A stretch of DNA of 64,000 nt, from assembly GCA_019359245.1 (NCBI GenBank), contig JAHHHR010000012.1, forward strand, positions 58,243 to 122,242, written 5' to 3'. The first letter of the stretch is position 1. Every line of letters begins with the position of its first letter. The notes under the pieces are model-generated. The model did no database searches and was not told the origin of the DNA. It was given only the letters and a program-made list of their open reading frames with translations. Source of the DNA: Nostoc desertorum CM1-VF14 (GTDB lineage: Bacteria; Cyanobacteriota; Cyanobacteriia; Cyanobacteriales; Nostocaceae). Positions 3,662-59,193 of the stretch are shown here, one piece after another. The position numbers and the translations under genes were made by a program.

Positions 3662-3688
3662 AAACCTGTATTGGACTTATTTTTTATT

Positions 3689-5151: not shown

Positions 5152-5165
5152 TGCACACGTGTGCA
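5152..5165. promoter_or_regulatory. Candidate LacI-family operator, perfect 14-bp palindrome TGCACACGTGTGCA
   Basis: Located in the gntK / lacI-like divergent region, 142 bp upstream of the gntK start. A MITE-like insertion separates it from the lacI-like start. Confidence 0.6.
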
Positions 5166-5177
5166 ATAGTTAAAACT

Positions 5178-5423: not shown

Positions 5424-5433
5424 AAGATAAAAA

Positions 5434-8300: not shown

Positions 8301-8331
8301 TACCAATTTTCCCAAATCAGGCTATTAGAAT

Positions 8332-8489
8332 TAGCCCTTTCAAGGTGATTCAGAAAATCTCTTTTTTTCTCTTTGTGTTTTCTGTGCCTCTGCGGTTTAA
8401 AAGTAATTTATTTAACCACAGGGGACACAGAGTAAATAGCTCAAACAGGAATTTATTAATCAAACTTTTTACCCACCTTGAAAGGGCTA
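8332..8489. repeat. Small element bounded by perfect 16-bp inverted repeats (TAGCCCTTTCAAGGTG / CACCTTGAAAGGGCTA)
   Basis: Read directly. It sits in the uxaC-SDR intergenic region, with the AATTACG heptamer repeat immediately downstream (8510-8530). Confidence 0.55.
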
Positions 8490-8536
8490 GTCCTAATATT
8501 GATTTTTTTAATTACGAATTACGAATTGAAAATAAG

Positions 8537-9373: not shown

Positions 9374-9375
9374 TC

Positions 9376-17588: not shown

Positions 17589-19847
17589 ATGGAGAATGCC
17601 ACACTTAAGCTGCGCGGTATGAGTTGCGCTTCCTGTGCCAGAAGTATTGAAGATGCTATCAGTTCTGTCCCAGGTGTGAATGAATGTAGTGTGAATTTTG
17701 GGGCAGAACAGGCAACAGTTGATTATGACCCCAGAACAACAGATTTACAAGCCATCCAAGATGCGGTGGATGCAGCAGGTTATTCTGCCTATCCCCTCCA
17801 AGAACAAAACTTGATGACTGGGGAAGATGATGAAAAAAGATATCGCCAGAAAGAATCCCGTGATTTAGTGCGAAAGGTGACGGTAGGGGGCATCATTGGC
17901 ACTGTGCTGGTGATTGGCTCACTACCGATGATGACAGGGTTACAGCTGCCTTTGATTCCAATGTGGCTGCATAACCCTTGGCTGCAATTAGTCCTTACTA
18001 CTCCTGTACAGTTCTGGTGCGGTTACTCTTTTTACGTTAATACCTGGAAAGCTTTCAAACGCCATACTGCAACAATGGATACCTTAATAGCTTTGGGTAC
18101 AAGTGCCGCATATTTCTATTCACTATTTGCCACTTTATTTCCTGGCTTTTTCATGGCTCAGGGATTGATGCCAGATGTGTATTATGAAACTGCGGCGATT
18201 GTAATTACCTTGATTTTGTTAGGGCGGCTGTTTGAAAATCGCGCCAAAGGCCAAACTTCAGAAGCTATCCGCAAGCTGATTGGTTTGCAGGCGAAAACAG
18301 CACGGTTAATTCGCAACGGGCGAGAAGTAGATGTACCCATTGAACAAGTACAAATTGGCGATGTAGTGTTGGTTCGTCCTGGGGAGAAAATTCCGGTTGA
18401 TGGCGAAGTAGTTGACGGGACATCCACTGTTGATGAAGCAATGGTGACTGGCGAAAGTGTCGCAGTGAAAAAGCAACCAGGGGATGAAGTTATCGGAGCA
18501 ACCATCAACAAAACTGGAAGTTTTAAGTTTCGGGCGACAAGAGTTGGTAAAGACACTGTACTGGCGCAGATTGTCCAACTAGTGCAACAGGCTCAAGGCT
18601 CAAAAGCTCCCATTCAGAGACTAGCAGACCAAGTTACAGGGTGGTTTGTGCCGGCGGTAATTGCGATCGCTATCTTTACCTTTATCATTTGGTACAACAT
18701 GATGGGTAATGTCACCCTGGCGTTGATTACCACAGTCGGGGTGTTAATTATCGCTTGTCCTTGTGCGTTGGGTTTAGCCACACCAACTTCGGTGATGGTG
18801 GGTACTGGGAAAGGTGCAGAAAACGGCATTTTAATTAAAGGAGCCGAAAGCCTAGAAATAGCACATCAGATTCAAACAATTGTGTTAGACAAAACCGGCA
18901 CAATTACCCAAGGTAAACCGACAGTTACAGATTTTCTCACAGTTAACGGTACACTTAACGGCAACGAAATTAAGCTGATACAACTAGCAGCATCCTTAGA
19001 ACGTAATTCTGAACACCCATTAGCAGAAGCAGTTGTTCGATACGCCCAATCTCAGGAAGTAACCTTAGCAGATGTCAAAGATTTTGAAGCCGTTGCAGGT
19101 AGTGGTGTACAAGGTATCGTTACTAACCGTTTCGTACAAATTGGTACACAACGCTGGATGGAAGAGTTGAGTATTAACACTCAAGCCTTGCAACAAGATA
19201 AAGAACGCTTAGAATACCTCGGTAAAACAGCAGTTTGGTTAGCAGTTGACGGCGAAATCAAAGGATTGATGGGGATTGCTGATGCTATTAAACCCACTTC
19301 CACCCAGGCTGTGAGAGCGTTGCAAAAACTTGGTTTAGAAGTTGTCATGCTCACAGGTGATAACCGCCGCACCGCAGAAAGTATCGCCCGTGAAGTTGGT
19401 ATCAAGCGGGTTTTGGCAGAAGTCCGCCCCGATCAAAAAGCTGCTACAGTGCAAGCACTACAAGCAGAAGGCAAAATCGTCGCAATGGTTGGTGATGGTA
19501 TTAATGATGCACCAGCCCTAGCTCAAGCCGATGTCGGAATTTCAATTGGTACTGGTACAGATGTGGCGATCGCAGCTAGCGACATTACCTTAATCTCTGG
19601 TGATTTGCAAGGCATAGTTACAGCAATTCAACTCAGCCGCGCCACAATTCGCAATATTCGCCAAAACTTATTCTTCGCTTTCATTTACAACGTTGCTGGT
19701 ATTCCCATCGCCGCCGGAATTCTTTTTCCCATCTTTGGTTGGTTACTGAACCCAATCATCGCCGGTGCAGCAATGGCCTTTAGTTCGGTTTCTGTAGTTA
19801 CTAATGCATTACGTTTACGTAGCTTCCAACCTAAAACACTTGGGTAG
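17589..19847 (+). CDS. copA: Copper(I)-translocating P1B-type ATPase
   Basis: 752 aa with an N-terminal HMA domain (GMSCASCA), [20 protein letters not shown], and YN / MxxSS in the last helices (the Cu(I) subgroup signature as I recall it). Confidence 0.9.
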
Positions 19848-19858
19848 AGGAAATAACA

Positions 19859-19939
19859 ATGTTGAATCAAGTCATATTTTTCGGGACTTTAGCAGGATTT
19901 GGATTTCTGCTAGGAGCAATTTCAGGAACTTTAGTATAG
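19859..19939 (+). CDS. Candidate 26-aa single-helix membrane peptide (MLNQVIFFGTLAGFGFLLGAISGTLV)
   Basis: Found by hand; it is below the track length cutoff. GAGGA lies 7 nt upstream of the ATG. It starts 12 nt after the ATPase stop and ends 38 nt before the cupredoxin gene. Confidence 0.35.
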   Translation: MLNQVIFFGTLAGFGFLLGAISGTLV

Positions 19940-19976
19940 CTGGTAACTTACTCAGATTCACGTAGGAGGTTTTTCA

Positions 19977-20555
19977 ATGTTGAACAAAACAGCACTTATC
20001 GGGAGTATAGCCAGTTTAGGAGTTGTATTCTCAATTGCATCTGGTGAAGCAGCTGCACAAAACTCCCACCAGGCGCACTCATCTGCAACAGTCCAAACCA
20101 ATCAATTTCAACGCATTGAGCAGCCATTAGGGAACAAAGTAGCCGTCACCCTCGGCGGATTGGGACTAATTGGCTTAGAAATTTGGTGGTTCTTGCTGAG
20201 TAAACCCAAGTCTCAGAAAGCAGTTGCAACGAGTGGAAATATTCAGGAAGCAACCGTCACCGTTGATGGGGGATATGAGCCAAGTCGAATTGTAGTGCAA
20301 GCCGGGAAACCAGTACGACTAAAATTTGAACGCAAAGATCCCAGCAGTTGTTTAGAACAAGTTTTGATTCCAGACTTTCACATTGCCGCAGATTTACCGC
20401 TTAATCAAGCTACTACTGTGGAATTTACCCCTGAAACAACAGGTGAATATACTTTCACTTGCGGTATGAATATGTTTCGTGGTGCGCTCGCAGTCCAAGC
20501 CGCAAACACTACTGAAGAAAAGTTGTCCACTCAAATCAGTGTCTCATCAGCTTGA
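19977..20555 (+). CDS. Membrane-anchored cupredoxin-like domain protein
   Basis: 192 aa with a signal/TM segment and a C-terminal domain: VTVDGGYEPSRIVVQAGKPVRLKFERKD..SC....IPDF...FTP...GEYTFTCGMNM. This is typical of cupredoxin_1-type accessory proteins of copper ATPases. Confidence 0.75.
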   Translation: MLNKTALIGSIASLGVVFSIASGEAAAQNSHQAHSSATVQTNQFQRIEQPLGNKVAVTLGGLGLIGLEIWWFLLSKPKSQKAVATSGNIQEATVTVDGGYEPSRIVVQAGKPVRLKFERKDPSSCLEQVLIPDFHIAADLPLNQATTVEFTPETTGEYTFTCGMNMFRGALAVQAANTTEEKLSTQISVSSA

Positions 20556-20575
20556 TGGAATGATCCTTTTCATAC

Positions 20576-20607
20576 TTGACTCTCCAGTTGAATGGAGAGT
20601 CTAGGAT
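20576..20607 (+). promoter_or_regulatory. MerR-type promoter: TTGACT, 20-bp spacer containing CTCTCCAGTTGAATGGAGAG, then TAGGAT
   Basis: Read directly, ending 39 nt upstream of the MerR-family gene, which implies autoregulation. Confidence 0.6.
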
Positions 20608-20645
20608 AAGATCAGTAATCATATCTCACTGAGGGTTTAGTTAGT

Positions 20646-21059
20646 ATGTTAGCCCAAGCAGAAGCAAAACAAATTGGTGTAGTTGCCAAAGAAAGCGGCG
20701 TACCCATTAAAACTATTCGCTACTATGAAGAACTTGGTCTATTAAAATCATCAGGAAGAACAGAAGGTGGATTTAGATTATTTAACTCTGATATTTTGGA
20801 GCGACTACACTTTATTAAACGCGCTCAAAGCTTAGGATTAAGCTTATCAGAGATTAAAGATTTTTTAAATGTTCATGATGGAGGAGAATTACCTTGTGAG
20901 CATATCAAAATTAAACTAGAAGATAAGGTAAAAGCTATTGATGAGCAAATTCAGCAATTACTAATTTTGAGGCAAGAATTATCGGGGTTGCTCTCTGGTT
21001 GGGAAATTAAGCCTGATGATTCTTATTCAACTATTTGTCCAATTATTGAGCATAATTAG
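20646..21059 (+). CDS. MerR-family heavy-metal-responsive transcriptional regulator
   Basis: 137 aa with an N-terminal HTH (IKTIRYYEELGLL), a dimerisation helix, and Cys84, Cys131 and His136 as candidate ligands. Confidence 0.85.
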   Translation: MLAQAEAKQIGVVAKESGVPIKTIRYYEELGLLKSSGRTEGGFRLFNSDILERLHFIKRAQSLGLSLSEIKDFLNVHDGGELPCEHIKIKLEDKVKAIDEQIQQLLILRQELSGLLSGWEIKPDDSYSTICPIIEHN

Positions 21060-25996: not shown

Positions 25997-27934
25997 CTAT
26001 TTTTTTTTCAGAGTGTTATCTAAAATCGAACCAGCTTTCCATATAGGAGCACCTCGTTCGTATGCACCAATATCAGGTGCATTACCCACAAAATTTTCTG
26101 TAATTCCGGGAATCATCACCCCAGCATCCACGGCTGGAGAGTTTGACTGTAAGGTAAAGTCGGGAATAGATTGGGAGGCTTCTGTAGGAGGTTGAGAAAA
26201 CTTAGGATTTTTATTGATAAACAAGTTATTGGATTGTTTATTGGCAGCTATAGTTTTAGATACCGCAAAAATATTATTACGCGTTTCAATTGAACCTCCA
26301 CCCGTAACCACATCTCCCATAAAAGTATTATTAAATACTCGCTCGTATCCCCGAGGACTACCTACCACTAAGTTATGGTTGTCCTTTCCTCCATTTAAAT
26401 TCCAGACTACATTATGGTGAATGGTGCTGTTAAATGTTTCGATGTCTAAATAAATACCACGAGTTCCCCAGAATGGACTAAAAGCTTGGGCATCCCGAAT
26501 CCAGTTATGATGAATCGAACCACCTTCTAAATTAACGTGGCAGCAAATATAAATAGCACCCAAGTCAGTACTGAGCATACCAAACTGAGAAATGTCATTG
26601 TAGGCAATTTCAATGTTACGACCATCTGTACCTGCGGTATGCCAATCAATATTAATTGCGTCACGACCAGCACGATAGATTGTGTTATGAGTAATTTTAT
26701 GACCATTGCCATTGATGCGGACAGGAGCCGCATAGGACACCATGTAATTACTATTGATAATAATATTATTGGTTACTGTGTGATTGCTACCTTCTAGCAG
26801 AACACCATTACCAGAACTCCATTCGATTATTGAGTTTTTTAATGTATGACTGTTTCCACGTAATTGAATTCCAGTATCATGGGCATGAGAAGTTACAATC
26901 AAAGCATTATCAGAATTAGGGGCTTGTTCTGACTGGGGTAGGGGTGGCAGAGTCATGTGGTGGGACACATATTTAGCCCGAATACCATCAATCACTATAT
27001 TAATGCTGCGATCGCTCGTGGTAATTGTGTTAGCAAATAGGTTTAAATTACGTAAAGAGATATAAGAACGATCGCTTAAATCAAAAGCAAAGTTCCGCTG
27101 TTTTACTTCTACGTTACTTGGGAGCTTACTGTCAGGCGACCAGAGGTAAAGAATTCGACTTTTATAGTCGTAAAACCATTCTCCTGGACTATCAAGTAAT
27201 TCTAATTTGCCAAACAGATAAAACCAAAATCCACCCCTATCCCAAGGAGCACTCATTTGAGCAGTTAACTTTCCTGCTGTTCCACCAGTGATTGTACCTG
27301 TGCGGGTGGTGTACCATTCATTAGTCCAGACTTTCGCACCAGTCCATCCCTCAGACAAATTAGGGATTTCTTTGTTTTCAATACTAGCTAATAGTCCTGC
27401 CTGACTTTTGACACCTCCACCTATGAGACTCGGACGCAGAAAATCTCGTTGTTTTTCATCCATGTTGGGAAAACGGGCTTCCGGCATCATTTCCCGATTG
27501 ACAAATAACTGATTGGCAAAGAAATTTATATCGCTATAGCCATTAACAGGTAAATTCACCTGGCTACGATAAACTGAGTTGCGATCTATAGCCCATCCTT
27601 CAACTAGTTCAGTCCCAGAAATAGTGACATTTTCATTTTTATAAGCTGCAAAGGTTATGGGTGCTTCTGCTGTGCCTGAAACCCCAGGACGAACTTGTTC
27701 ACGATAAATACCTGCTCTTAGCCAACAAGTTTCCCCTGGCTGAACAACAGTGGCACATTTTTGAATGGTTTTAAATGGGCGATCGATTGTTCCAGGATTT
27801 TTATCTGAACCAGTTGGTGCGATAATATAATAATTATTAGGTATTGCAATACTTTTACTGAAAAAAATTAAAATGCCAGGAGAAGTAGCAAAACAAAGAG
27901 AAAAGATTGAGTATTTCAATAGTTTCTTATTCAT
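25997..27934 (-). CDS. Secreted right-handed parallel beta-helix repeat protein (pectate-lyase/NosD-like fold); candidate polysaccharide lyase, hydrolase or epimerase
   Basis: 645 aa with a signal peptide and repeated N..I....G... rungs (HTVTNNIIINSN, HKITHNTIYRAGRDAINI, IHHNWI, IHHNVVWN). Confidence 0.8.
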   Translation of the reverse strand: MNKKLLKYSIFSLCFATSPGILIFFSKSIAIPNNYYIIAPTGSDKNPGTIDRPFKTIQKCATVVQPGETCWLRAGIYREQVRPGVSGTAEAPITFAAYKNENVTISGTELVEGWAIDRNSVYRSQVNLPVNGYSDINFFANQLFVNREMMPEARFPNMDEKQRDFLRPSLIGGGVKSQAGLLASIENKEIPNLSEGWTGAKVWTNEWYTTRTGTITGGTAGKLTAQMSAPWDRGGFWFYLFGKLELLDSPGEWFYDYKSRILYLWSPDSKLPSNVEVKQRNFAFDLSDRSYISLRNLNLFANTITTSDRSINIVIDGIRAKYVSHHMTLPPLPQSEQAPNSDNALIVTSHAHDTGIQLRGNSHTLKNSIIEWSSGNGVLLEGSNHTVTNNIIINSNYMVSYAAPVRINGNGHKITHNTIYRAGRDAINIDWHTAGTDGRNIEIAYNDISQFGMLSTDLGAIYICCHVNLEGGSIHHNWIRDAQAFSPFWGTRGIYLDIETFNSTIHHNVVWNLNGGKDNHNLVVGSPRGYERVFNNTFMGDVVTGGGSIETRNNIFAVSKTIAANKQSNNLFINKNPKFSQPPTEASQSIPDFTLQSNSPAVDAGVMIPGITENFVGNAPDIGAYERGAPIWKAGSILDNTLKKK

Positions 27935-34770: not shown

Positions 34771-36447
34771 TCATACCTTCTCTTTTATCTCCTTCAAATG
34801 GTCTGCTAGCCTTAAAGCAAACGACACAATCATAAATGTGGAATTAGCTTGCCCGGAAGTTACAAAAATAGAACTACTGGCAACAAACAAATTATCCAAA
34901 CTATGAACGTTGCAGTTAGTTCCTACAACACCATCCTTAGGGTATTCTGACATTCGAGTTGTCCCAACTTGATGAAATCCATCTCCAGCTTGCTCCCAGA
35001 CGCTAGATTCAGGATCATTTGTCACATACTTTAAATAACCACAGTTATGCTCTCTGAGGTACTGATCCCAATATTTATGAGCTTGAACCACACCATCTAT
35101 GTCTTGCTGTGTGAACTGAAGATTGATATTTAGCCTTCGCATTCCTAGTGCATCCCTTTCATCGGATAGGGTTACGACACTATTGGGATTGGGTATCTGC
35201 TCACTGTGATAGTGAAAAGGATATTCATTAGCAGCACTATAGACAAATAATGCTGGAATTTTTCTTTTGGCAATATATCGCCCATACCCAAAACGAGGAA
35301 CAAAAGTCAGTGCTTGGCCAAAGTCCTTCAAGACATTTATGATATGCGCCCGATAAATCCCCTGCTCCTCTTTTCCAATGGCGGCTTTTCGCATCGCCGT
35401 TGAGGTCAAGTAATTTCTCAGTACAGGCATACTCAATGCTAGGTAGGCAGAAGACAAGATGCTATTTTGATGAGATGGATCGCCAAACTTGGGAGAGCCT
35501 AACCAAGCCACAATGTTTGGAAGTTGCTTCTCATGTAAAAACTCACGGGTAAAGGAGAAGCGGCGGCGCAAATAGATTTTATCTGAATCTCGATCAAACC
35601 CAAAAACAGTATCCTTGGGAGGTGTCGTGAAATGTATAAGGGCGATGTCTCCTGAAAGATGCCCCATGTAGAATTTTCCTAACAGACCACTATGGTTGCC
35701 GATGCCACCTGGATGCTTGCGATCAGAGGCAAGTAGTAGACGAGTAGTATTTAATGCACCACCTGCTAGCACATATTTTTGACATTTCACATAAATAGTC
35801 TTTCCTCCTAAGGTCTTTCCATGCAGTAACTCAACTTGATTACCTTGCTCATTAGTTTCAATTTCAGTGCAAGTTAAGCCATAAAGTAGTTTGATTTTTT
35901 TAGATTGCTGCAAATCATGAAAATATTCTTTACCAAAGTTGGTAGGCAGAGACCATCTTTCTAGGGTTGAAGTAAAAGCTTCTGCATCAGATAACCCTGG
36001 AACAATCGATTTTTGATGAATGTTGGAGATATTTTTGATATTAAATTCTGACTTGCCGCAAAAGAAATAGTCACATGCTCTTTGAAAGTAACCTGCGATC
36101 GCCTCATAGGTAACGGGCCAATCAGAATTCTGAATATATGGTCGCTTATCAAAATCTACAGGATCGTAAGGCAAACAACGCCCACCCCAAATGATCGATG
36201 TCCCACCCAATTGTCTACGAGTACATTCCGACATGGGTGCATGAAATTTGGGATCGAAATGGCTGGCTTCACCGAGATTTTGAATCTCCTCAGAGAAATG
36301 TAAACGTCCACTCTCGATCAAAGCAACATCATATCCTGCCTTGGCTAACTCTAAAGCTAAAACAATACCAGCCGGACCTGAGCCAACTATTGCAATATCC
36401 GACCTGAAACTAGTTTCGTTTTCAAGACTTTCTGCATCAATAAACAT
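34771..36447 (-). CDS. GMC-family FAD-dependent oxidoreductase
   Basis: 558 aa with N-terminal IVGSGPAGIVLALELAKAG....ESG and C-terminal H..GT.RM / SS.F.T.G..N.T motifs. Confidence 0.85.
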   Translation of the reverse strand: MFIDAESLENETSFRSDIAIVGSGPAGIVLALELAKAGYDVALIESGRLHFSEEIQNLGEASHFDPKFHAPMSECTRRQLGGTSIIWGGRCLPYDPVDFDKRPYIQNSDWPVTYEAIAGYFQRACDYFFCGKSEFNIKNISNIHQKSIVPGLSDAEAFTSTLERWSLPTNFGKEYFHDLQQSKKIKLLYGLTCTEIETNEQGNQVELLHGKTLGGKTIYVKCQKYVLAGGALNTTRLLLASDRKHPGGIGNHSGLLGKFYMGHLSGDIALIHFTTPPKDTVFGFDRDSDKIYLRRRFSFTREFLHEKQLPNIVAWLGSPKFGDPSHQNSILSSAYLALSMPVLRNYLTSTAMRKAAIGKEEQGIYRAHIINVLKDFGQALTFVPRFGYGRYIAKRKIPALFVYSAANEYPFHYHSEQIPNPNSVVTLSDERDALGMRRLNINLQFTQQDIDGVVQAHKYWDQYLREHNCGYLKYVTNDPESSVWEQAGDGFHQVGTTRMSEYPKDGVVGTNCNVHSLDNLFVASSSIFVTSGQANSTFMIVSFALRLADHLKEIKEKV

Positions 36448-48222: not shown

Positions 48223-51200
48223 TTAGGCAGCTTTCCACCGGCCAATTTCACCGCCGTAGAGGCTGGCATAGTAAAGATTTCCGTCAAGTCCCGTCTCCAT
48301 GTCAATGATATAGGGTAAGTTGTCAAACACTTGAGTAGACTTTACAGTTCCATTTGGATTAAAGAATGTTGTATATATAGTTCCCAATCCAACATCGTTG
48401 TAGAACAATGCACCATTATAAATTGCGGGATAGGAGTTCCCAGTATAAAAGTCACCCATGATTAGGGCAGTAGTTGGCAGCCCATCAGAGTTCTGGCTGG
48501 CATCATGGTTGCGAGTTAGCAATGGAGAAACTACTGTCTGTCCGCTGTTATAGAACGCTTGCGCCTGAGGTAGAGTGCTATACCCTGCATTTTGTGGGGA
48601 ACCTTCAAAGTAAGGCCACCCAAAATTACTGCCCCTCGTTGCTACGTTAATTTCCTCCCATGTGTTCCAACCTACTTCACCGAGATAGGGAGTTCCTGTT
48701 GTTGGGTTGATAGTAAAGCGGAAGGAATTTCGCAATCCGAGGCTCCACACCTTGGAGCGGTTGCTGTCCAGATTACCGTTGGAGAATGGATTGTCGGCAT
48801 ATCCTTGTCCGGTGAGAGGATTAATCCGCAGCAGTTTGCCAGATAAATTATCGACATCTTGGACGCGAGTTGATCGCCAGTCAACTGAGTTGTAGGAAGT
48901 TCCATCCCCAACGGTGACATACAACGATCCATCGAGCCCAAATTGAACTTGTCCGATACTATGGCTGTCACTGTCACCTGCCAAGTAGTCTCTGATATTG
49001 TTGTTGTGATCAAAGTTGGTATCTGTTGCCGAATAGTCTCTCCCAATATTACTAGTGTCCGCATCTTCAATTAGTGCTGGCGGTGCTGTAATAGTTGAAC
49101 CATTGACAATTCCAGAGGGAAGGGTGGTGAAGCTAACCGTACTATCCACATCGGGACGGCTGGTGTATTGCCAGAGACTATTCTTGCCGAGCAATACCAC
49201 TTCACTGTTAGGCAATGCAGTGGTGTAGTTTGTGGCGGGGTTAGCCGTCACTCTGATCAGACGGGCGGGACGATTCCCAAGTCCATCTGGACCTGCTAAC
49301 CCTGTGTTATTTTGGGTTTCTGGGGGGTCATAGGTAAATAGTAGGTAGACATAGTCCCGACCTTGATTTTGACCAAAGGACGGATCGACAGCCAGCCCTA
49401 GTAAGCCGCGATCAGCCACATTATTGACCTGCGCTGAAATATCTATAAAGGGTGTAGGCCGAAGCCCTAAGGACACTGGTAATGGAGCAGTGCTCGTGTT
49501 GATCAGCACCCCAACGTCGCTGGTGTGCCAGTTGGCAGTAGCAATATCGGCTTTACCGTCATTATTAAAGTCAGCTACATTCAGACTAAAGGGAGTCCGG
49601 CCCGTAATGTAAGTGCTGGGAGCGGCAAAGGTGCCATTGCCGTTTCCAAGCAACACACTAATCGTATTACCTCCAGGATTATCGTTGTTGGGATAGTTGC
49701 CCGCTGTATTGGCCGTAAGCAAATCGAGTATGCCATCACCATTGATGTCACCGATCGCCACACCCTTGGGCACGCTACCCGTTGCATAGCTCGCGACTGG
49801 TGCAAAGCCACCGATGCCGTTACCTAGCAACACCCCTACCGTGTCAGCGTATTCGTTCGCGGCAACGAGATCGATCCGACCATCGCCATTTAGATCGGCT
49901 GCGCGGAGTGAGTGGGGACCATCGCCAATAATATAATTCGATGTACTACCAAAGATCCCAGCACCAGAATTAAGTATGACACTTATTGCATCAGTACCCT
50001 GGTTGGCAACTGCTATATCGGCTCTGCCATCGCCGTTGAAATCGGCAAGCTGAAGAGAGTGTGGTGCACTACCAACAACGTAGTCAGCGAAGTTCCCGAA
50101 CGTGCCGTTACCATTATTTCGCATGATGCGGACGATCGTGCTCCCCCATCCAGTCACGGCGATGTCGATGTCACCATCCCCATCCACATCTGCGGCTACT
50201 GCTTCATGGGCCCCAGTTGATCCCGCATAGCTGACACTAGGCGCAAAGGTTCCATTACCGTTACCGAGTAGTACATTGACATTGTTGGAGGTCTGGCTGG
50301 CAGTAAATAAGTCAAGCCTGCCGTCACCATTGAAGTCTGCCGCAAACACTGATTTCGGCTCAACTCCAACTCCAAAGTTGACAGCAGGGGCAAAGGTGCC
50401 ATTACCGTTGCCGAGTAGGACACTGACGTTGTTACTGCCAGCATTGGCGGTCGCTAAGTCAAGCCTGCCGTCCCCGTTAAAATCGGCTGAAACGATTCCA
50501 TGGGTGTGAGTACCAGTGGCATACTGCTGAACGGGAGCGAATCTCACGGTATTATTTGGCTGTACGAAAGTTCTGACTACCCCACCTTTTTCGGCGATGA
50601 ACATTAATTGACCATCTGGTGACCAATCGAATGTAGTAGGCTGGTTCAAACCGCCAACTATCTGCTCCCGTGGTAAGGTCAATAGTCGAGGTGGTGGTGG
50701 GGTGTATGTACCTATGACCAATTGGGCATCTGCCCAGTCGGCATGATCCGAACCAAAACCATTGCCCCCATCGTTTACCACTAGCGTTAGGGTTTGTTTG
50801 CCTGTGACATCGACATTCGCTAACTGCGTATCACTGAGTCCTGTCATGACTCCACTGTCAAAGAGGACTACTCCATCTGCCAAAATCCGGAAGACTACGG
50901 AGCCATTTCTACCGACTTCGTCATCTACTCCAACATAGGCGAAGAAACTATTGTAAGCTCCTGCAAGATTGTAGGTGATCTGAGAGCCAGCATGGACTCC
51001 CAGTCCTTTAGCATAGGTCACACCATTGAGTGTCAATGTGTTACCATCAGCTGCTTCTTGTTCACCATTTGAGCGATCTCTTTCGACTGGTCCATAGCCG
51101 TTGGTTGATGAGGCAAAAGGGAGATCGCTCAGGTACGTTAGAGTTGGCGCAGATCCGTCGCGAATTGAGATCGAAGAAGTGCGAGATGGTCCGAGATCGG

Positions 51201-53718
51201 CACCTGTAGGATTTTGAATCAACAAACTGACTGTTGTATTTGTATTGGCAGCACCATCATTGAGCGTTTGAACGGTGACCATTTTCTGGGTTTCGCCTGG
51301 TGCAAAGGTCAGGGTGCTAATCGGAATCGGGACGTAGTTGACATTCGGAATCGCCGTTGAGTTACCGCCAGTAAAGTAATCGATTGTCGCGACTCCCGTA
51401 GTATCTCCTAGTCTTTGAATTGGGATTGTGACAATGCTGCCTTCTGCTACCTGAGAGCTATTGGATCCAACCACCAAGATGGATTCCACCGTGTTCTGAA
51501 AGGTGCCTAATAGGGTGTCAGCAGATGTAGTGTTACCAAAGGAATCTCGCACTTCTCCAGCTAATAAGGTCGCAGTGTAGGTACCGCGATCGTTCCAATT
51601 CCAGATGCTATCGGGTGCTGTAATCTGATACGTGGCGGTTACCGATGGACTGTTTGTGTTGGGTGTCACACTCACCAATTGAGCTAGTTGAGAGAACCCG
51701 TTCGGTCCAGTGACCCGAACATCACTGCTGTTAATTGTACTGACGTTCACCGCAGTAGCATCTGCATATGTAACACTAAATGCGTAAGGTGCAGAAATAC
51801 TAGTACTGATTGCTGCTGCTGTTAGAGTAGGAGTTGGGGTGCTGGTATCGGGACCCGACGGAACTGAAGTCAACCGAGCACCCGCCCAATCGGCATGGTC
51901 ATACCCAAACCCATTCCCGCCATCAGTTACCACCAGTCGCAGGTTCTGTCTCCCCGTCACATCGACATCCACAGTACGCGTGGCAGTGATGCCCGTCATT
52001 ATGCCACTATCATAAATCTGTACCCCATCAGCCCACACTTGGAAGACGACGGAGCCATTGCTGCCCACCGTATCATCTACGCCAATATCTGAAATAAAGC
52101 GAGTATAGCTCCTGCCTAGGGCGTAAGTCGTATCCGAGCCAGCATGGACTCCCAGTCCTTTAGCATAGGTCACACCGTTGAGTGTCAATATGCCACCATC
52201 AGTCGCTCCTTGTTCGCCGTTGGATCGGTCTCGCTCGATAAGTCCCCAGCCATTCGTCGCCGATGTCGCTGTCAAATCGCTTAGATAAACAGTCGTTCCC
52301 ACTACAACCTGGAAAGTTCCTAGGGTTGCCGCCGCGATCTCATTGCTGCTGGTATCGCTGACTTGAGTACTTTCCAGCGCGACAATATAGGTTCCCGCTT
52401 CGTTTGTATCCCAACTACCACCCGGAGCCCCAATCTGATAGGTTGCTATAATTTGCAAACTGTTAGCAGCAGGAGTTGCGCTGATAAAAGTAGCTGCTTG
52501 ACTGTAGCCATTGAGACCTGTCACCAACAGGTCATTGGAGTCTAGAGTACTAAAATTGACAGCAACATTATCCCTGTATGTCACTGTGAAGGTATAGGGA
52601 GTAGTGCTGCTGGGCACTGTTGTCAGTGTGCTAGCGTTGAGCGTTGCAGATGGAGGGGTAGTATCAGGTGTAGGAGTGCTTGCAATGAGTTGAGCATTTG
52701 CCCAATTGGCATGGTCATAAGCAATGCCGTCGCTTCCACCAGTAACCACCAACCGCAGGTTCTGTCTCCCAGTCACATCTACATCCACGGTTTTTGTGAT
52801 ACTGCTACCAGTCATTATTCCACTGTCGTAAATCTGTACCCCATCTCCCCAGACTTGGAAAACGACGGAGCCGTTGTTACCAACCTCATCGTCTACACCA
52901 ATGTCTGAAATAAAGCGGGTATAGTTCCTCCCCAAGGCGTAGGTAATGTCCGAGCTAGCATGGACTCCTAGTCCTTTGAGATAGGTCACACCATTAAGTG
53001 TCAGTGTGCCTCCATCTTCTGCTCCTTGTTCACCGTTGGACCTATCTCGTTCGGCTGGCCCCCAGGCATTTGTCGCCGATGTCGGTGTCAAATCACTCAG
53101 ATAAAAACTCGGTAAGATTCCTTGGTAGGAGTCCATCAAGGAAGTTGTGAAAGGTATAGCCGTTTCAATCTTGCCAGTAGCATACTCCAGATTCCAATCG
53201 CCACCTTGCAGGGAATTGCCTGTAGGATTTGTAGAGGCTGCAACATCCGCTCCAGTCAAAGCACTTATCTCGTTGACGAATGTTTGCCCGAATTCTCCGG
53301 CCGCAATATTACATCCGTAAAAAAGAATATCCGCTCCTGGAACAAGAGATGATTTCCATTGTTTTATCTCATTTGCATATTCTTGAAGGGAGTTCGCACT
53401 GAGAAAACTGTTTCCTAATTGCAGAGCCGCAACATTTCCATGGGAAATGATATTAATGCCTGACAAACCCTCATAGTGCTTGAGAGTTTCGGTTATTTGG
53501 GTAATCCCGTTTCGAGTAGGATCTAGGAGAATTTTGACATCTGATTGCAGGTTTACTAAGACTGTTAGAGGATTGGAAATATTTTGATCGACAAAAGTAA
53601 TCGTTTGTGGACTTATTAAGTTGTTTCCAGGAAATGCTGGTAGTTGTAGAGGATTTGTGAATTGCTGTGGAACTAATGGCGATTCAAATGTCTGGATAGC
53701 AAAATAATTGTCTAACAT
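48223..53718 (-). CDS. Giant multidomain protein: DUF4347 - 3x NPCBM (with Ig-like spacers) - Calx-beta - PQQ-type glucose/sorbosone-dehydrogenase-like propeller interrupted by a seven-repeat FG-GAP/VCBS block
   Basis: 1831-aa uninterrupted ORF. Approximate nt spans on the minus strand:
- DUF4347: 53110-53718 (ILFYGCNIAAG..LTGADVAAS..GGDWNLE).
- NPCBM: 52688-53103, 51871-52287 and 50719-51135 (YLSDL..WGP.ERDRSNGE..LNGVTY.KGLGVHA...DHA.WA.A.L).
- Calx-beta: 51190-51480.
- FG-GAP x7: 49495-50520 (DFNGDGRLDL...).
- Dehydrogenase-like segments: 50570-50690 and 48223-49480. Confidence 0.88.
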   Translation of the reverse strand: MLDNYFAIQTFESPLVPQQFTNPLQLPAFPGNNLISPQTITFVDQNISNPLTVLVNLQSDVKILLDPTRNGITQITETLKHYEGLSGINIISHGNVAALQLGNSFLSANSLQEYANEIKQWKSSLVPGADILFYGCNIAAGEFGQTFVNEISALTGADVAASTNPTGNSLQGGDWNLEYATGKIETAIPFTTSLMDSYQGILPSFYLSDLTPTSATNAWGPAERDRSNGEQGAEDGGTLTLNGVTYLKGLGVHASSDITYALGRNYTRFISDIGVDDEVGNNGSVVFQVWGDGVQIYDSGIMTGSSITKTVDVDVTGRQNLRLVVTGGSDGIAYDHANWANAQLIASTPTPDTTPPSATLNASTLTTVPSSTTPYTFTVTYRDNVAVNFSTLDSNDLLVTGLNGYSQAATFISATPAANSLQIIATYQIGAPGGSWDTNEAGTYIVALESTQVSDTSSNEIAAATLGTFQVVVGTTVYLSDLTATSATNGWGLIERDRSNGEQGATDGGILTLNGVTYAKGLGVHAGSDTTYALGRSYTRFISDIGVDDTVGSNGSVVFQVWADGVQIYDSGIMTGITATRTVDVDVTGRQNLRLVVTDGGNGFGYDHADWAGARLTSVPSGPDTSTPTPTLTAAAISTSISAPYAFSVTYADATAVNVSTINSSDVRVTGPNGFSQLAQLVSVTPNTNSPSVTATYQITAPDSIWNWNDRGTYTATLLAGEVRDSFGNTTSADTLLGTFQNTVESILVVGSNSSQVAEGSIVTIPIQRLGDTTGVATIDYFTGGNSTAIPNVNYVPIPISTLTFAPGETQKMVTVQTLNDGAANTNTTVSLLIQNPTGADLGPSRTSSISIRDGSAPTLTYLSDLPFASSTNGYGPVERDRSNGEQEAADGNTLTLNGVTYAKGLGVHAGSQITYNLAGAYNSFFAYVGVDDEVGRNGSVVFRILADGVVLFDSGVMTGLSDTQLANVDVTGKQTLTLVVNDGGNGFGSDHADWADAQLVIGTYTPPPPRLLTLPREQIVGGLNQPTTFDWSPDGQLMFIAEKGGVVRTFVQPNNTVRFAPVQQYATGTHTHGIVSADFNGDGRLDLATANAGSNNVSVLLGNGNGTFAPAVNFGVGVEPKSVFAADFNGDGRLDLFTASQTSNNVNVLLGNGNGTFAPSVSYAGSTGAHEAVAADVDGDGDIDIAVTGWGSTIVRIMRNNGNGTFGNFADYVVGSAPHSLQLADFNGDGRADIAVANQGTDAISVILNSGAGIFGSTSNYIIGDGPHSLRAADLNGDGRIDLVAANEYADTVGVLLGNGIGGFAPVASYATGSVPKGVAIGDINGDGILDLLTANTAGNYPNNDNPGGNTISVLLGNGNGTFAAPSTYITGRTPFSLNVADFNNDGKADIATANWHTSDVGVLINTSTAPLPVSLGLRPTPFIDISAQVNNVADRGLLGLAVDPSFGQNQGRDYVYLLFTYDPPETQNNTGLAGPDGLGNRPARLIRVTANPATNYTTALPNSEVVLLGKNSLWQYTSRPDVDSTVSFTTLPSGIVNGSTITAPPALIEDADTSNIGRDYSATDTNFDHNNNIRDYLAGDSDSHSIGQVQFGLDGSLYVTVGDGTSYNSVDWRSTRVQDVDNLSGKLLRINPLTGQGYADNPFSNGNLDSNRSKVWSLGLRNSFRFTINPTTGTPYLGEVGWNTWEEINVATRGSNFGWPYFEGSPQNAGYSTLPQAQAFYNSGQTVVSPLLTRNHDASQNSDGLPTTALIMGDFYTGNSYPAIYNGALFYNDVGLGTIYTTFFNPNGTVKSTQVFDNLPYIIDMETGLDGNLYYASLYGGEIGRWKAA

Positions 53719-54234: not shown

Positions 54235-55494
54235 TTATACTTTTTGTTGACCAAAAGTAAAATACAGTTGTTGTTGCTCAACTTGAGACGTGGTTTTATC
54301 TGAGGTATTTTCAATTAAAAATAGCCCCTTGCGTCTTAGGGATTGTTCAATAAGAACCTCCTTTAAAATATCTTCAGAAAACTGTTCTTGCTGGACAAGA
54401 AGCTCTCCTAACTTATGGTTAGTAGCACTTTGTAACGCTAGAATTTTATCCAGAAACTGCTTTCTTACAAGCTTTTTTTCTAATACAAGGCTACCAAATT
54501 GAATATTTTGGTTCTTCAGATAAAACTTTAACTGTTTTAAAGATATTAATTGCTTTGACACTAAAATTTCACCAATTTTTAAATTTGGGTTTAAACTTTG
54601 CTCTAGTAAAGCTTGTCTGATATCTTCTCTAGTTACAATATTTTGTCGAACAAAAATTTCACCAATTTTTTCAGGCGTAAAATCTAAATTTTCTATATCT
54701 GTTCCTAATAAAAGATTCTTTGTTTGATTAGAATTATGCTTATGGGTGATTGCCAACTCCTTAATAGCTAAATAGATAAAATATGGAATTGTTGAAGCGT
54801 AACGCTTCCAAAGACGAAGTGGCTCTTGTGTTAACCGATACAACCATTCCAAACATAATTGTTGAACCCAATGGGGAGCGCGTGGAGTAATCCCTGCGTA
54901 CATAGAGAATACTGCACCTACACCAACCATTACTGCTTGAATCTTTCCGTGATAGTGGGACATCCAAATTTCCTGTTTAGGACATCCCAAACAAACAAAA
55001 ATAATTCCCGCACCACTTTGATTAATTTCTTCAATTAATTCTGTATTATGACTTTTGTCAATCTCATCAATAGGAACAAAGGGAATGGATTTCATTCCTG
55101 CAACTTTTAAAATCGGATATTCTTCGTCTAGTTTTCGCTTAATTTTGTCTAAAATCTCTTGTGTAGAGCCAAGAAAATAAACTGGCTTTCCAGTGATTTC
55201 AGCTAAAGCACACAAATTAAGGAAAACATCCATTCCTGATACTTGATTTTGGTGATAAATCCCCAATTGGCGTAACATCAACACTAAAGGCTTGCCATCA
55301 GGGGTAACCAAATCTGCTTTATTTAAAATTTTTCTAAATGAAAAGTTCCAATGGGCTTCCATAAGCATATGAACATTGGCTAAATAGACAACCTTACTAG
55401 CCCTCATATTTGCCCAGCGCAAAATTAACATAATCTGCTCATCCAAAGGCAAACACGTAATAGGAACATTAAACAAACCTTTCTTGGGTATCAT
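54235..55494 (-). CDS. WecB/TagA/CpsF-family (GT26) glycosyltransferase fused to four C-terminal MshEN/T2SSE_N-like 24-residue repeats
   Basis: 419 aa. The N-terminal 250 aa or so carry the GT26 pattern (V..ANVH......PDG.P.V......FLG.....GCPKQE.W...........GVGA.F). The C-terminal repeats (nt about 54343-54670) are KIGEIFVRQNIVTREDIRQALLEQ, KIGEILVSKQLISLKQLKFYLKNQ, QFGSLVLEKKLVRKQFLDKILALQ and KLGELLVQQEQFSEDILKEVLIEQ. Confidence 0.85.
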   Translation of the reverse strand: MIPKKGLFNVPITCLPLDEQIMLILRWANMRASKVVYLANVHMLMEAHWNFSFRKILNKADLVTPDGKPLVLMLRQLGIYHQNQVSGMDVFLNLCALAEITGKPVYFLGSTQEILDKIKRKLDEEYPILKVAGMKSIPFVPIDEIDKSHNTELIEEINQSGAGIIFVCLGCPKQEIWMSHYHGKIQAVMVGVGAVFSMYAGITPRAPHWVQQLCLEWLYRLTQEPLRLWKRYASTIPYFIYLAIKELAITHKHNSNQTKNLLLGTDIENLDFTPEKIGEIFVRQNIVTREDIRQALLEQSLNPNLKIGEILVSKQLISLKQLKFYLKNQNIQFGSLVLEKKLVRKQFLDKILALQSATNHKLGELLVQQEQFSEDILKEVLIEQSLRRKGLFLIENTSDKTTSQVEQQQLYFTFGQQKV

Positions 55495-56255: not shown

Positions 56256-56736
56256 TCAGGTTAGCTATTTTGCTAACACTATTACAACAAGCGATCGCAG
56301 CACTGGGATAGTGATTGATGGTATTCAGGCTAAGTATGTTTCCCACCACATGGCTCTGCCACCCCTACCGAAGTCAGAAAAAGCTTATGAATCTGATAAT
56401 GCTTTATTTTTGGCTTCTCATACTCACGATACTGGCATTCAGTTACGTGGTACTAGTCATACATTCAAAAACTCTACTATCGAATGGAGTTCTGGTAATG
56501 GCGTACTGTTAGAAGATAAAAACCATACAATAACCAACAATATTATTGCCAGCAGCAATTACATGGCGTCCTATGCGGCTCCTGTCCGTATCAATGGCAA
56601 TGGTCATAAAATTACTCATAACACTATCTTTCGCGCTGGTCGTGACGCAATTAATATTGATTGGCATACCGCTAGTACAGACGGTCGTAATATCGAAATC
56701 GCTTACAATGATACTGCTTTACTAACTTCTGTATAA
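56256..56736 (+). pseudogene. Internal fragment of a beta-helix gene paralogous to 25997..27934, in inverted orientation
   Basis: The translation ..FANTITTSDRSTGIVIDGIQAKYVSHHMALPPLP...HKITHNTIFRAGRDAINIDWHTA.TDGRNIEIAYND aligns with residues about 300-450 of the 645-aa protein. Stops lie immediately upstream and homology is lost after AYND. Nucleotide identity is roughly 80-85% by eye. Confidence 0.8.
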
Positions 56737-57015
56737 AAATCCTTGAGCAAACTTTGCTCTTGAATAGTCATAGTCTATCCAAAGAACTTCAAGATAACTC
56801 TTTCAATCGCTTCGTAAAGGCAATTGCCTCTAAAGGTTCCAATGCGAATCTGCAAAGATATAACACTTAGAATGCTCATGCATAGCCGATTCATCTATAG
56901 CTATTAAACTAGGCTCGATTTAGCCTACAGGCTACTCCTAGATAGATTAGATGTTATTTATTAAATTCTATTGACGAATCAAAGCTTAGAGTACACCCTA
57001 AAAAAATAATTGAAT

Positions 57016-59193
57016 ATGCATATTTTAATAGCAGCTTTACATAGACCTATTCAACCAACTGGTATTTGCAGACATGCTGCTAATCTAGCCCACTGCTTAG
57101 CAGAAAATAAAGAAGTTACCAGAATCAGTTTAGTTATCGGATCTTGGCAACAGCATTATTTTAAAGCTGCTTTTTCTCTTGATTCTGAAAAAATTAAACT
57201 AATCATTGTCAACATCAAAAACAGTTCCGTTGTCAGGAATAGTTGGTTTCTCAGTGGCTTACCTCAATTAGCAAATAATCTCGGTTCAGATATTGTTCAT
57301 CTTTCCTTTCCTTTTCCTTTTTTTAGAGCTAGTTTTAACGCTTATGTAGTTACTACAATTCATGATTTATACCCCTACGAATGTCCTGAAAACTTTGGTT
57401 TTCCTCAAGCTTGGTTTAATCGTTTATTTTTTAAGCAATGCATTAGCAATAGCGATGGACTTGCTTGTGTATCTCAAGTTACATTAGAAAAACTAAAAGT
57501 TTATTTTCCTCATCTTGATCCACATAAAGAAATCGATGTGATTTATAATTATGTTGATTTTGAAAAGTTAGAACCTAAAATACCTCAACAACTACCGAAA
57601 AACAGTTCATTTTTATTGTCTGTTGCCCAGCATCGTCAAAATAAAAATTTAGATTTATTGATTAAAGCTTATTCTTGGTTATTAGATAACAAAAAATTAA
57701 ATCCAGATGCTAAGTTAGTGATTGTCGGTACTTCTGGGCCTGAAACTCAAAATATTAAGAATTTAATTAGCGATTTATCTTTAGAGACTAAAGTAGTTTT
57801 GCTAGCAGCCATCGATGATTCAGAATTATGCTGGCTATATCAAAATTGCCAAGCTTTTGTAATCCCATCCTCTACAGAAGGTTTTTGCTTGCCCCTAGCT
57901 GAAGCGTTGTATTGGAGTAATATAATTGTATGCTCTGACATACCAATTTTTAGAGAAATCGGTAGTTATAAATGTACTTATTTTTCTTTAGAAAATGATG
58001 CTGTTAATAATCTCGGTCAAGCCATTATTCAATCTATCAGTAGGTCTAGTTTATCAAGCTATACTAATGTATCTCGTTTTGAGAAGTCAAATATAGCCAA
58101 GCAGTATTTAAATTTATATTCTAGATTAAATCTAGAAGAAGAAACCCGATTTTTGAAAAATATACAAGAGACTGAAAAACTCACTAAGGTAAAATTTACT
58201 ATTACTACCTTAGATGAAAGAATTATCATACAAATTCCTGAGAAATTGAGCGTATTTGAAGCACTAAATTTAAAGCAGATTTGCCAAGAAATAACCCAAA
58301 GAGAGGCTATTTTCAAAGAAATAATTATTGACTTCTACCAAACAATTTTTATGGACAGTAGCGGTTTAGGAGCTTTGGTTAGTATTTGGAAAACTGCTCA
58401 AGCAAAGGGAATTATCGTGCTTTTCAAGAATGTTACACCCCAGGTTTGGTCAGTGTTAAGCCTGACAGGGCTAGATACAGTTTTTTCTATTAAATCTAGT
58501 TTTGAAACACATTTTATAGCAACAGATTATGCCTTGGATAAGGAGAGGGCTTTTCGCATGAACAAAGACCAGCTCCCAGCAACTCATCTTTCTGTAAAAT
58601 CTTGGATTAAAAGATTTATAGATGTTATTGGTGCTTTAGTTGGTTTAGTTATAATAGGAATTGTGTTTGTTCCGGTTGTAATTGCTATTCAAATCGATGA
58701 TCCTGGGCCTATTTTCTTTAGCCAAGTTCGTTGTGGTTGGATGGGTAAGAAGTTCAGAATTTGGAAGTTTCGCTCTATGTGTATAGATGCAGAAGCGAAA
58801 AAATCCCAAGTTAAAAATCAAGTACAGGGTGCTTTTTTTAAGAATGAACAAGACCCCAGGGTTACGAGAGTCGGTAAATTTATTCGGCGAACCAGTATTG
58901 ATGAACTGCCACAATTTTGGAATGTGTTGAAAGGAGATATGAGTTTAGTTGGGACGAGACCACCCACACCTGATGAAGTAGAACATTATGAAGTACCACA
59001 ATGGCAGCGTTTAGACATCAAACCAGGAATGACGGGAGAATGGCAAGTAAATGGTCGATCTAGAGTCCGTAGTTTTGAAGATGTAATTCGCATGGATTTG
59101 TTCTATCAACAGAACTGGAGTCTGATGTACGATTTGAAGTTGATTGTTAAAACTTTCGCCGTTCTGTTTACTAAAAATAGTGGCGCTTACTAA
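57016..59193 (+). CDS. Triple fusion: GT4 glycosyltransferase - STAS (SpoIIAA-like) domain - polyprenyl-phosphate sugar phosphotransferase (WbaP/EpsL-type bacterial sugar transferase)
   Basis: One continuous ORF; I prefer the ATG at 57016 to the TTG at 57010.
- GT4: VIPSSTEGFCLPLAEAL.
- STAS, nt about 58186-58500, with FMDSSGLGAL.
- TM helix plus sugar-transferase core, nt about 58602-59190: DDPGPIFFSQVRCG..GK.F.IWKFRSM, RVT.VG.F.R..S.DELPQ..NVL.G.MSLVG.RP, ending ..GAY. Confidence 0.85.
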   Translation: MHILIAALHRPIQPTGICRHAANLAHCLAENKEVTRISLVIGSWQQHYFKAAFSLDSEKIKLIIVNIKNSSVVRNSWFLSGLPQLANNLGSDIVHLSFPFPFFRASFNAYVVTTIHDLYPYECPENFGFPQAWFNRLFFKQCISNSDGLACVSQVTLEKLKVYFPHLDPHKEIDVIYNYVDFEKLEPKIPQQLPKNSSFLLSVAQHRQNKNLDLLIKAYSWLLDNKKLNPDAKLVIVGTSGPETQNIKNLISDLSLETKVVLLAAIDDSELCWLYQNCQAFVIPSSTEGFCLPLAEALYWSNIIVCSDIPIFREIGSYKCTYFSLENDAVNNLGQAIIQSISRSSLSSYTNVSRFEKSNIAKQYLNLYSRLNLEEETRFLKNIQETEKLTKVKFTITTLDERIIIQIPEKLSVFEALNLKQICQEITQREAIFKEIIIDFYQTIFMDSSGLGALVSIWKTAQAKGIIVLFKNVTPQVWSVLSLTGLDTVFSIKSSFETHFIATDYALDKERAFRMNKDQLPATHLSVKSWIKRFIDVIGALVGLVIIGIVFVPVVIAIQIDDPGPIFFSQVRCGWMGKKFRIWKFRSMCIDAEAKKSQVKNQVQGAFFKNEQDPRVTRVGKFIRRTSIDELPQFWNVLKGDMSLVGTRPPTPDEVEHYEVPQWQRLDIKPGMTGEWQVNGRSRVRSFEDVIRMDLFYQQNWSLMYDLKLIVKTFAVLFTKNSGAY

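Follow-up and report, generated by a model that had tools for sequence, protein, structure and literature searches.

The gene analysed here lies at positions 48223..53718 (reverse strand) of a stretch of 64,000 nucleotides from Nostoc desertorum CM1-VF14 (contig JAHHHR010000012.1, positions 58,243 to 122,242; hereafter the window). It codes for a protein of 1831 amino acids (aa) that starts with ATG; in-frame stops upstream of the open reading frame (ORF) exclude an N-terminal extension. Sequence comparisons and structure predictions together confirm that this protein carries a predicted seven-bladed FG-GAP propeller inserted into a six-bladed propeller of the glucose/sorbosone dehydrogenase (GSDH) type, and that the split of the latter is real, as had been proposed in a first-pass annotation made from the sequence alone. 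We favour the view that the protein is a glycan-targeted oxidoreductase with a nested propeller, rather than a pure adhesin (with a probability of roughly 0.55), the functional part of which we infer from its domains and conserved residues.

The number of repeats in the FG-GAP block is exactly seven, in agreement with the initial count: Pfam returns seven stretches of FG-GAP_3 (E 8.2e-62), the motif D[FVLI][ND][GN]DG occurs at aa 1079, 1128, 1177, 1226, 1275, 1324 and 1383 (a period of 49 aa, with one step of 59 aa), and the insert is modelled by AlphaFold2 (AF2) as 28 strands, four for each of the seven blades. The calcium loop D-x-[ND]-x-D-G-x-x-D is complete in 7/7 blades. The mean pairwise identity between blades is 38%, which does not support a recent amplification.

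The two strings that the first-pass annotation quoted as the start and the resumption of the dehydrogenase begin at aa 1012 (LLTLPREQ...) and aa 1420 (RPTPFIDIS...). In the native protein, the Pfam GSDH family (PF07995) matches aa 1580-1817, corresponding to profile positions 107-321 of 332 (E 1e-28; 101 bits for a Pfam cut-off of 25). When the FG block is removed, and aa 1005-1052 are joined to aa 1415-1831, the score rises to 117.6 bits from the 103.6 bits of the C-terminal fragment alone (+14). In a phmmer search of the PDB with this spliced construct, single alignments cross the junction (residues 23-95 of 2ISM, 19-106 of the soluble glucose dehydrogenase sGDH, and 7-88 of the Hedgehog-interacting protein HHIP). 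Similarly, positions 3-97 of a profile of 25 subfamily sequences align to residues 12-107 of sGDH, across the splice.

The FG block is missing, at exactly the nested point, in several relatives (P0012, P0031, P0037 and others). P0012 is 85% identical to the window protein over the best BLASTP alignment and its dehydrogenase domain is uninterrupted: it reads ...GGVVRTFVQ|PNNLAVPLGLQPTPFIDIS, where the bar marks the junction at which the window protein carries about 360 aa. More distant members of the subfamily have a tight turn (VVNG.LQ) at the insertion point.

The AF2 model of aa 1005-1831, obtained with 46 aligned sequences, has a mean predicted local distance difference test score (pLDDT) of 89.4 and a predicted template modelling score (pTM) of 0.78; the N-terminal fragment forms four strands in this model (pLDDT 88-94). 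When the predicted outer domain is compared with the PDB using Foldseek, the matches include 3a9g, 1c9u (sGDH), 7cdy, 2ism, 2g8s (Asd) and 7pgm, and comprise sugar dehydrogenases that depend on pyrroloquinoline quinone (PQQ; 3a9g, sGDH, 7cdy, 2ism and Asd) as well as HHIP; the template modelling scores relative to the target (TMt) are 0.73 for 3a9g, 0.72 for 7cgz and 0.69 for 2ism. The insert matches the seven-bladed fungal lectins PVL and AAL2 (22-24% identity) and CRTAC1. By sequence, PVL is also its closest solved relative (E 3.1e-13).

The agreement between the splice score, the cross-junction alignments, the FG-less relatives, AF2 and Foldseek bears out the domain-insertion model. The contrary reading, in which the split is illusory because aa 1005-1052 are an unrelated linker or because the ORF is an assembly chimera of two separate domains, was checked and deserves practically no credence. 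It could draw on the fact that the 48-aa fragment alone has no Pfam match, which is explained by its being too short, whereas it is contradicted by alignments that run continuously across the splice, by the FG-less relatives and the genomes (the fragment is contiguous with the domain in at least 17 of the former and in 76/80 species-level genome loci), by the nested order of 22 independently assembled sequences, and by the confident AF2 model.

When the GSDH propeller is aligned with sGDH, the N-terminal fragment provides the first strand and strands A-C of blade 1, and the chain resumes with strand D; the insert therefore occupies the tight C-D hairpin of this blade. In propellers, such a hairpin and the usual active site are found on opposite faces. 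Judging from this general topology, the nested propeller would lie on the side of the host that is opposite the active site.

Insertions into propellers have precedents. The integrin alpha-I (vWA) domain is inserted between propeller blades 2 and 3, and the propellers of bacterial sialidases contain lectin or insertion domains. As in these cases, the insert of the window protein is an autonomous, probably ligand-binding domain that occupies a propeller loop, has adjacent termini and leaves the host fold unaffected, but here guest and host are both propellers. The guest resembles the FG-GAP propellers of the integrin-alpha type (PVL, 2BWR and 4UP4; AAL2, 4TQM; CRTAC1) in having seven blades with DxNxDGxxD loops and a predicted closed fold. 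PVL and AAL2 are fungal lectins that bind N-acetylglucosamine. Unlike PVL, AAL2 and CRTAC1, the propeller described here is a guest inside another propeller and has a calcium loop in all seven blades, while its sugar binding is putative.

The nested form is found in 22 of the 120 best database hits, among them the protein of Nostoc sp. FACHB-152; all 22 are 65-96% identical to the window protein and they are confined to one cyanobacterial lineage. About 17 of the 120 have the same scaffold without FG-GAP, and about 70, from other phyla, have GSDH and FG-GAP7 in tandem, in varied order and nearly always with NPCBM. The three-module set NPCBM, FG-GAP7 and GSDH is indeed widespread in tandem, in Planctomycetota and other phyla. 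Among the 185,579 genomes of a species-representative scan, the GSDH subfamily occupies at least 595 loci in cyanobacteria, Planctomycetota and Bradyrhizobium/Rhizobium. The best 80 of these loci include three nested forms (in two Synechococcales metagenome-assembled genomes and in Nostoc sp. FACHB-152) and one tandem form, and the other 76 have GSDH without the FG block. The best 150 matches in a search of 1.84 billion representatives are dominated by giant multi-FG-GAP proteins, and P0015 alone matches the whole region in one stretch. Six divergent candidates, whose alignments continue past a junction, turned out to be FG-GAP-only proteins. The absence of nesting outside the clade covers these best 150 representatives, the 120 best hits of the word index and the 80 best genome loci. 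The exact sequence of the window protein is absent from the databases consulted; the closest relatives are a 96%-identical protein from an ENA metagenome and the protein of Nostoc sp. FACHB-152.

We found no paper on this architecture; literature searches on NPCBM combined with sorbosone dehydrogenase and on nested propellers yielded nothing of use, and a non-exhaustive phrase search gave no described case of a propeller within a propeller. The first-pass annotation, which knew of no described protein with this architecture, is borne out as far as these searches go, but the protein is not a one-off: its modules are widespread as a set, and the nested order is a rare permutation of them that is restricted to one lineage.

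Regarding the history of the insert, a neighbour-joining tree of the GSDH part alone shows nested and FG-less forms interleaved. In three pairs of sequences with 90-97% identical flanks the insert is cleanly missing, with endpoints that differ; P0031, for example, retains the last strand of blade 7. P0022 and P0031 represent the same locus in two different samples. Their DNA flanks show 97.7% and 99.5% identity, and an exact in-frame deletion of 1053 nt sets them apart; there are no direct repeats and no microhomology at the deletion junction. Judging from these sequences, near-identical relatives have lost the insert at least three times independently, each time by an exact in-frame deletion. 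This history is most simply explained by one insertion event in a single cyanobacterial lineage, after which the insert was excised repeatedly and a working GSDH fold was left.

The FG module is 45-60% identical to modules found in proteins whose GSDH part is only 30-39% identical; it is thus a conserved companion of this GSDH subfamily. In P0019 (Leptolyngbya ohadii) and P0129 the module, with unchanged boundaries, is located just upstream of an intact GSDH domain, only about 45 residues from the nested position, and this order may represent an intermediate stage of the module shuffling or another of its outcomes. In P0019 (aa 1049-1865), the FG-GAP module is 69% identical to that of the window protein. 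Together, the tandem occurrence of the module in relatives and its exact excision in near-identical strains are natural controls, which show that the host fold tolerates both states. The protein is thus a clean natural example, for studies of protein evolution and design, of a closed propeller hosted in a hairpin of another.

Two side observations concern the surroundings and the composition of these genes. Transposase fragments (Tn3-type DDE and IS1) are found a few kb upstream of the P0012 and P0022 genes (L082:2840-3595 and L083:1502-2149), and these loci are therefore in mobile, rearranging surroundings. In the window gene, the third-position GC content is 0.41-0.52 from the first NPCBM module to the end of the protein (gene body, 48226-53103) and 0.34 in the DUF4347 part, the values for the neighbouring genes being 0.26-0.33; this contrast may mean that the gene body is foreign, or be a composition effect.

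The outer propeller is similar, by sequence and by predicted six-bladed fold, to the soluble PQQ sugar dehydrogenases (Acinetobacter calcoaceticus sGDH, 1C9U; Escherichia coli Asd/YliI, 2G8S; 3A9G; 2ISM); it keeps their catalytic histidine and Arg-Asn dyad, and the window protein appears extracytoplasmic. His1586 (nt 48961-48963) aligns with His144 of sGDH, which is the catalytic base (PMC6881810), and Arg1663-Asn1664 (nt 48727-48732) align with Arg228/Asn229, the dyad located at the PQQ quinone (the roles of these residues are described in PMC6881810 and PMC6881789). All three are invariant in 25/25 subfamily members, which span cyanobacteria, Planctomycetota and rhizobia. The calcium loop of sGDH at Gly247/Pro248 aligns to the sequence D/E-V-G-W, in which the glycine is kept and the proline is replaced by tryptophan; the ligands are main-chain carbonyls. 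The subfamily also has its own invariant charged motifs, DRGLL, DGTSYN..D.R..RVQD, WEE and NFGWPY.EG.

The window protein differs from the PQQ sugar dehydrogenases by the seven-bladed propeller inside blade 1, by its 1831-aa context and by an additional loop. The latter is a segment of about 65 aa in the C-terminal GSDH fragment (aa ~1513-1577, ~48988-49179 on the reverse strand), mostly coil in the AF2 model. Relatives of the Planctomycetota type align to positions 5-98 and 163-413 of the C-terminal fragment only, skipping this segment, which looks like a clade-specific loop near the catalytic histidine.

The sequence comparisons clearly assign the NPCBM modules to the CBM51 type, the E-values against solved CBM51 modules being 1.4e-41 for 7js4, 1.5e-28 for 2vmg/2vmh and 5.9e-9 for 2ygl. 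There is thus clear homology to the CBM51/NPCBM modules of Clostridium perfringens glycoside hydrolases (2VMG, 2VMH, 2YGL), but the three copies in the window protein are attached to a dehydrogenase-like domain, not to a glycoside hydrolase. Family members with the same scaffold have an L-type lectin in place of NPCBM (P0095, P0109) or an additional CBM6/CBM35 (P0040), which supports glycan targeting. This points to a large, uncharacterised family in cyanobacteria and planctomycetes, in which arrays of lectin modules or carbohydrate-binding modules are fused to a dehydrogenase-like propeller.

The first-pass annotation described DUF4347 as a head typical of adhesin-like proteins. The domain does stand at the N terminus, but it is not merely a head: its AF2 model (pLDDT >90 for aa 40-200) looks like a putative cysteine-protease domain of clan CD, similar to the caspases and to the cysteine protease domains (CPD) of toxins. 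A sequence search against the PDB gave no match for DUF4347. The best Foldseek match is Tce1 (9qpe_G; E 1.1e-4; query-based TM score, TMq, 0.48), followed by CED-3, legumain, caspases and Csx29 (E 2e-3 to 3e-2); these matches agree with one another but are weak. Tce1, here from the Hcp3-Tce1 complex of Pseudomonas aeruginosa, is PA0256, itself a DUF4347 protein. It has been reported as a putative cysteine protease, with a His/Cys dyad that can be superimposed on the autoprocessing domain of TcdB (PMC13323088). In the window protein, His93 (nt 53440-53442), followed by Gly94, and Cys136 (nt 53311-53313) are invariant in 40/40 homologs, and Cys136 is the sole cysteine of the 1831 residues. The domain resembles both Tce1, an effector of the H3 type VI secretion system, and the CPDs of the TcdB/MARTX type, by family and best fold match in the case of Tce1 and by invariant His and Cys residues in the clan-CD pattern. 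In contrast to Tce1, which is a small Hcp-loaded effector, DUF4347 heads here a large modular cyanobacterial protein; both are putative proteases. This result provides a candidate role for a domain that is a common "head" of giant bacterial surface proteins.

Regarding the localisation of the protein, the absence of an obvious Sec signal noted initially was verified: the 1831-aa protein contains no signal peptide, no transmembrane segment and no known sorting motif, and there is no lysine or arginine within its first 35 residues. It also lacks RTX repeats and the GGxGxD motif. Its composition is typical of extracellular proteins (rich in G, T, A, S and N, with 1.1% lysine and one cysteine). 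Cyanobacterial exoproteins without a signal are known, and All4539, a protein of the GSDH family, was detected in the exoproteomes of Anabaena and N. punctiforme (PMC4390845). The gene is part of an island devoted to extracellular polysaccharide (EPS), with a WecG-type transferase, GT2 and GT4 enzymes, an ABC exporter similar to PglK, MsbA and HepA, an EpsZ/WcaJ-type priming transferase, a Wzc-like kinase, a GMC oxidoreductase and beta-helix proteins. The island is syntenic in Nostoc sp. FACHB-152 and in the contig of the 96%-identical P0001, and partly so in FG-less relatives. A scan for promoters and terminators around the gene gave nothing above shuffled expectation.

If the protein is a glycan-targeted oxidoreductase, it would leave the cell by a non-Sec route, and its place of action would be the EPS layer or the sheath. 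Glycans would be bound by the CBM51 modules and by the lectin-like FG-GAP propeller, which would hold the GSDH domain against its substrate. This domain would oxidise a sugar (an aldose or a reducing end being the most likely), the cofactor being PQQ or a related quinone bound differently from that of sGDH. Because the C-D hairpin is, in the general topology of propellers, opposite the active-site face, nesting would attach the lectin propeller rigidly and yet leave catalysis unobstructed. It is plausible, based on the predicted fold, that DUF4347 processes the protein through the His93/Cys136 pair. The fusion of a catalytic propeller to carbohydrate-binding modules is also found in the fungal AA12 enzyme CcPDH (AA8-AA12-CBM1). 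If active, the proteins of this family would be a new kind of enzyme that modifies EPS or the cell surface.

A number of observations weigh against this reading. How the two propellers are oriented to each other, and on which face the insert lies, is deduced from the general topology of propellers. The frequent loss of the insert shows that it is dispensable. The substrates of sGDH-type enzymes are free reducing sugars, and polymers have few reducing ends. The carboxylates of PQQ are held by basic residues (Arg406/Arg408 in sGDH, the RIR sequence of Asd, and Lys377; PMC6881789), and the positions that correspond to RxRDV, which contain these two arginines of sGDH and Asd, read YIIDM (1803-1807) in the window protein and are hydrophobic throughout the subfamily; for Lys377, the alignment gave no reliable equivalent. 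The PQQ site of the dehydrogenase proposed initially is thus conserved as regards the catalytic His and Arg/Asn, and not as regards the arginine pair that binds the carboxylates. The protein scores 63.2 bits against the NCBIfam model TIGR03606 (non_repeat_PQQ), far below the cut-off of 434.55 bits; its activity and cofactor are putative. No pqq genes, which the first-pass annotation had suggested looking for in the genome, occur within the 64-kb window, and a literature search on pqq genes in cyanobacteria gave nothing useful. The absence of an export signal in the protein is not compensated by partner secretion genes in the window, where the neighbouring ABC protein has PglK, MsbA and HepA as best matches and is not a type I secretion ABC protein. 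Last, the nested orthologs of loci L001 and L066, which are 73% identical, have no neighbours in common with the island (those of L001 are housekeeping genes), and the protein is therefore not tied to one island; its central position in the island, which had been taken as a hint to its function, is not a conserved feature, synteny with the island being retained in FACHB-152 and in the 96%-identical contig.

The same observations (the missing arginines, the lack of pqq genes in the window and the low NCBIfam score), together with an architecture rich in lectin modules, are what would be expected if the protein were a purely non-catalytic matrix adhesin or scaffold, all of whose modules, including the GSDH-like propeller, would only bind ligands and thereby cross-link or anchor extracellular polysaccharide. 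That HHIP, a ligand binder with the same fold, is among the sequence and fold matches points in the same direction, but HHIP aligns to the N-terminal ~90 residues only, not to the catalytic core. Besides, the catalytic His, the Arg-Asn dyad and many other charged residues are invariant across the 25 members, a pattern that is typical of an active site. Considering these residues, we regard the adhesin hypothesis as rather unlikely, even if it is the strongest of the rival explanations, and consider an active enzyme whose cofactor site is non-canonical more likely than a domain that only binds.

Alternatively, catalysis could be the task of the FG-GAP propeller (acting, for instance, as a calcium-dependent polysaccharide lyase or hydrolase), the GSDH-like domain being only a scaffold. 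All seven calcium loops are intact and, across phyla, conservation is higher in the FG module than in the GSDH part; on the other hand, the best single-domain matches of this module are lectins (PVL, AAL2) and CRTAC1, there is no lyase in the top 50, and near-identical strains have lost this module by deletion but retained all the rest, which makes this proposal very improbable. Even less credible is a giant adhesin of the RTX type, secreted by a type I system. The large size of the protein, its repetitive, calcium-binding modules, the lack of a Sec signal and the nearby ABC protein are reminiscent of such adhesins, but there are no RTX nonapeptides and no GGxGxD, the protein ends with the last strand of the GSDH propeller, neither HlyD nor TolC is encoded in the window, and the ABC protein is of the PglK/MsbA/HepA kind; we rejected this candidate on these grounds. 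The glycan-targeted oxidoreductase can also be extended into a much bolder proposal, which we consider speculative and distinctly improbable as a whole. The GSDH subfamily defined by NFGWPYFE and DVGWNxWEE (at least 595 loci) would form a class that has so far gone unrecognised, made up of extracellular glycan oxidoreductases targeted by lectins; these would correspond in bacteria to the AA12 enzymes of fungi and have a new mode of quinone binding. In the nested lineage, the lectin propeller would be welded into the enzyme and set the geometry of the substrate; the protein would leave the cell without a Sec signal, and its own N-terminal CPD-like protease domain would process it.

The positions of all domains are collected in the table below. 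The Pfam scan returned every domain listed by the first-pass annotation (DUF4347, three NPCBM, Calx-beta, FG-GAP and GSDH): DUF4347 matches aa 40-202 (E 2.9e-53), NPCBM three stretches (E 4.3e-153), and Calx-beta aa 758-853, the latter being borderline (27.1 bits for a cut-off of 27.0). As for the "Ig-like spacers", there are two spacers (aa 346-477 and aa 618-745), which are homologous to each other (local score 281), but the Ig-like fold is putative, as neither matched a Pfam family or a solved structure.

Table. Domains of the 1831-aa protein, with their positions in the window.
Feature	Positions (nt)	Residues (aa)	Strand	Basis
Disordered leader (aa 1-33) and DUF4347	53104..53718	1-205	-	Pfam, AF2, Foldseek
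NPCBM module 1 (CBM51-type)	52684..53103	206-345	-	Pfam
Spacer module 1	52288..52683	346-477	-	homology to spacer 2; no Pfam match
NPCBM module 2	51868..52287	478-617	-	Pfam
Spacer module 2	51484..51867	618-745	-	homology to spacer 1
Calx-beta-like domain (borderline)	51145..51483	746-858	-	Pfam; calcium-binding domain (CBD) of NCX1, E 0.02
NPCBM module 3	50707..51144	859-1004	-	Pfam; solved CBM51 modules
N-terminal fragment of the predicted GSDH propeller (first strand, then strands A-C of blade 1)	50563..50706	1005-1052	-	alignments, AF2
Inserted FG-GAP propeller, predicted seven-bladed	49477..50562	1053-1414	-	Pfam, motifs, AF2, Foldseek
Remainder of the predicted GSDH propeller (strand D of blade 1 to blade 6)	48226..49476	1415-1831	-	Pfam, PDB profile search, Foldseek

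Several other genes of the window deserve a comment. The WecG/TagA-type glycosyltransferase encoded upstream (54235-55494, reverse strand) has a C-terminal c-di-GMP-binding motif of the MshE type (58.8 bits for a cut-off of 38, in two stretches), which suggests that the EPS island is under c-di-GMP control. The gene at 57010-59193 (forward strand) codes for an unusual three-part fusion of a GT4 glycosyltransferase, a STAS domain (anti-sigma antagonist-like) and a priming phosphotransferase of the EpsZ/WcaJ type. The GMC-family FAD oxidoreductase of the same island (34771-36447, reverse strand), whose C terminus is pyranose-oxidase-like, is a further candidate for sugar oxidation. Right-handed beta-helix proteins similar to pectate lyase and GH141 are encoded at the island's edges (25997-27934, reverse strand, and 56311-56736, forward strand); they may be enzymes that cleave EPS.

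Outside the island, positions 596-10632 hold an unrelated sugar-acid cluster, with genes for a periplasmic sugar-binding protein, a myo-inositol oxygenase, a LacI regulator, a glucuronate isomerase, an SDR protein and a LarA-like protein. A P1B ATPase of the copper type with an HMA domain, a cupredoxin-like protein and a MerR regulator are encoded at 17589-21059 (forward strand), in what looks like a metal-resistance unit.

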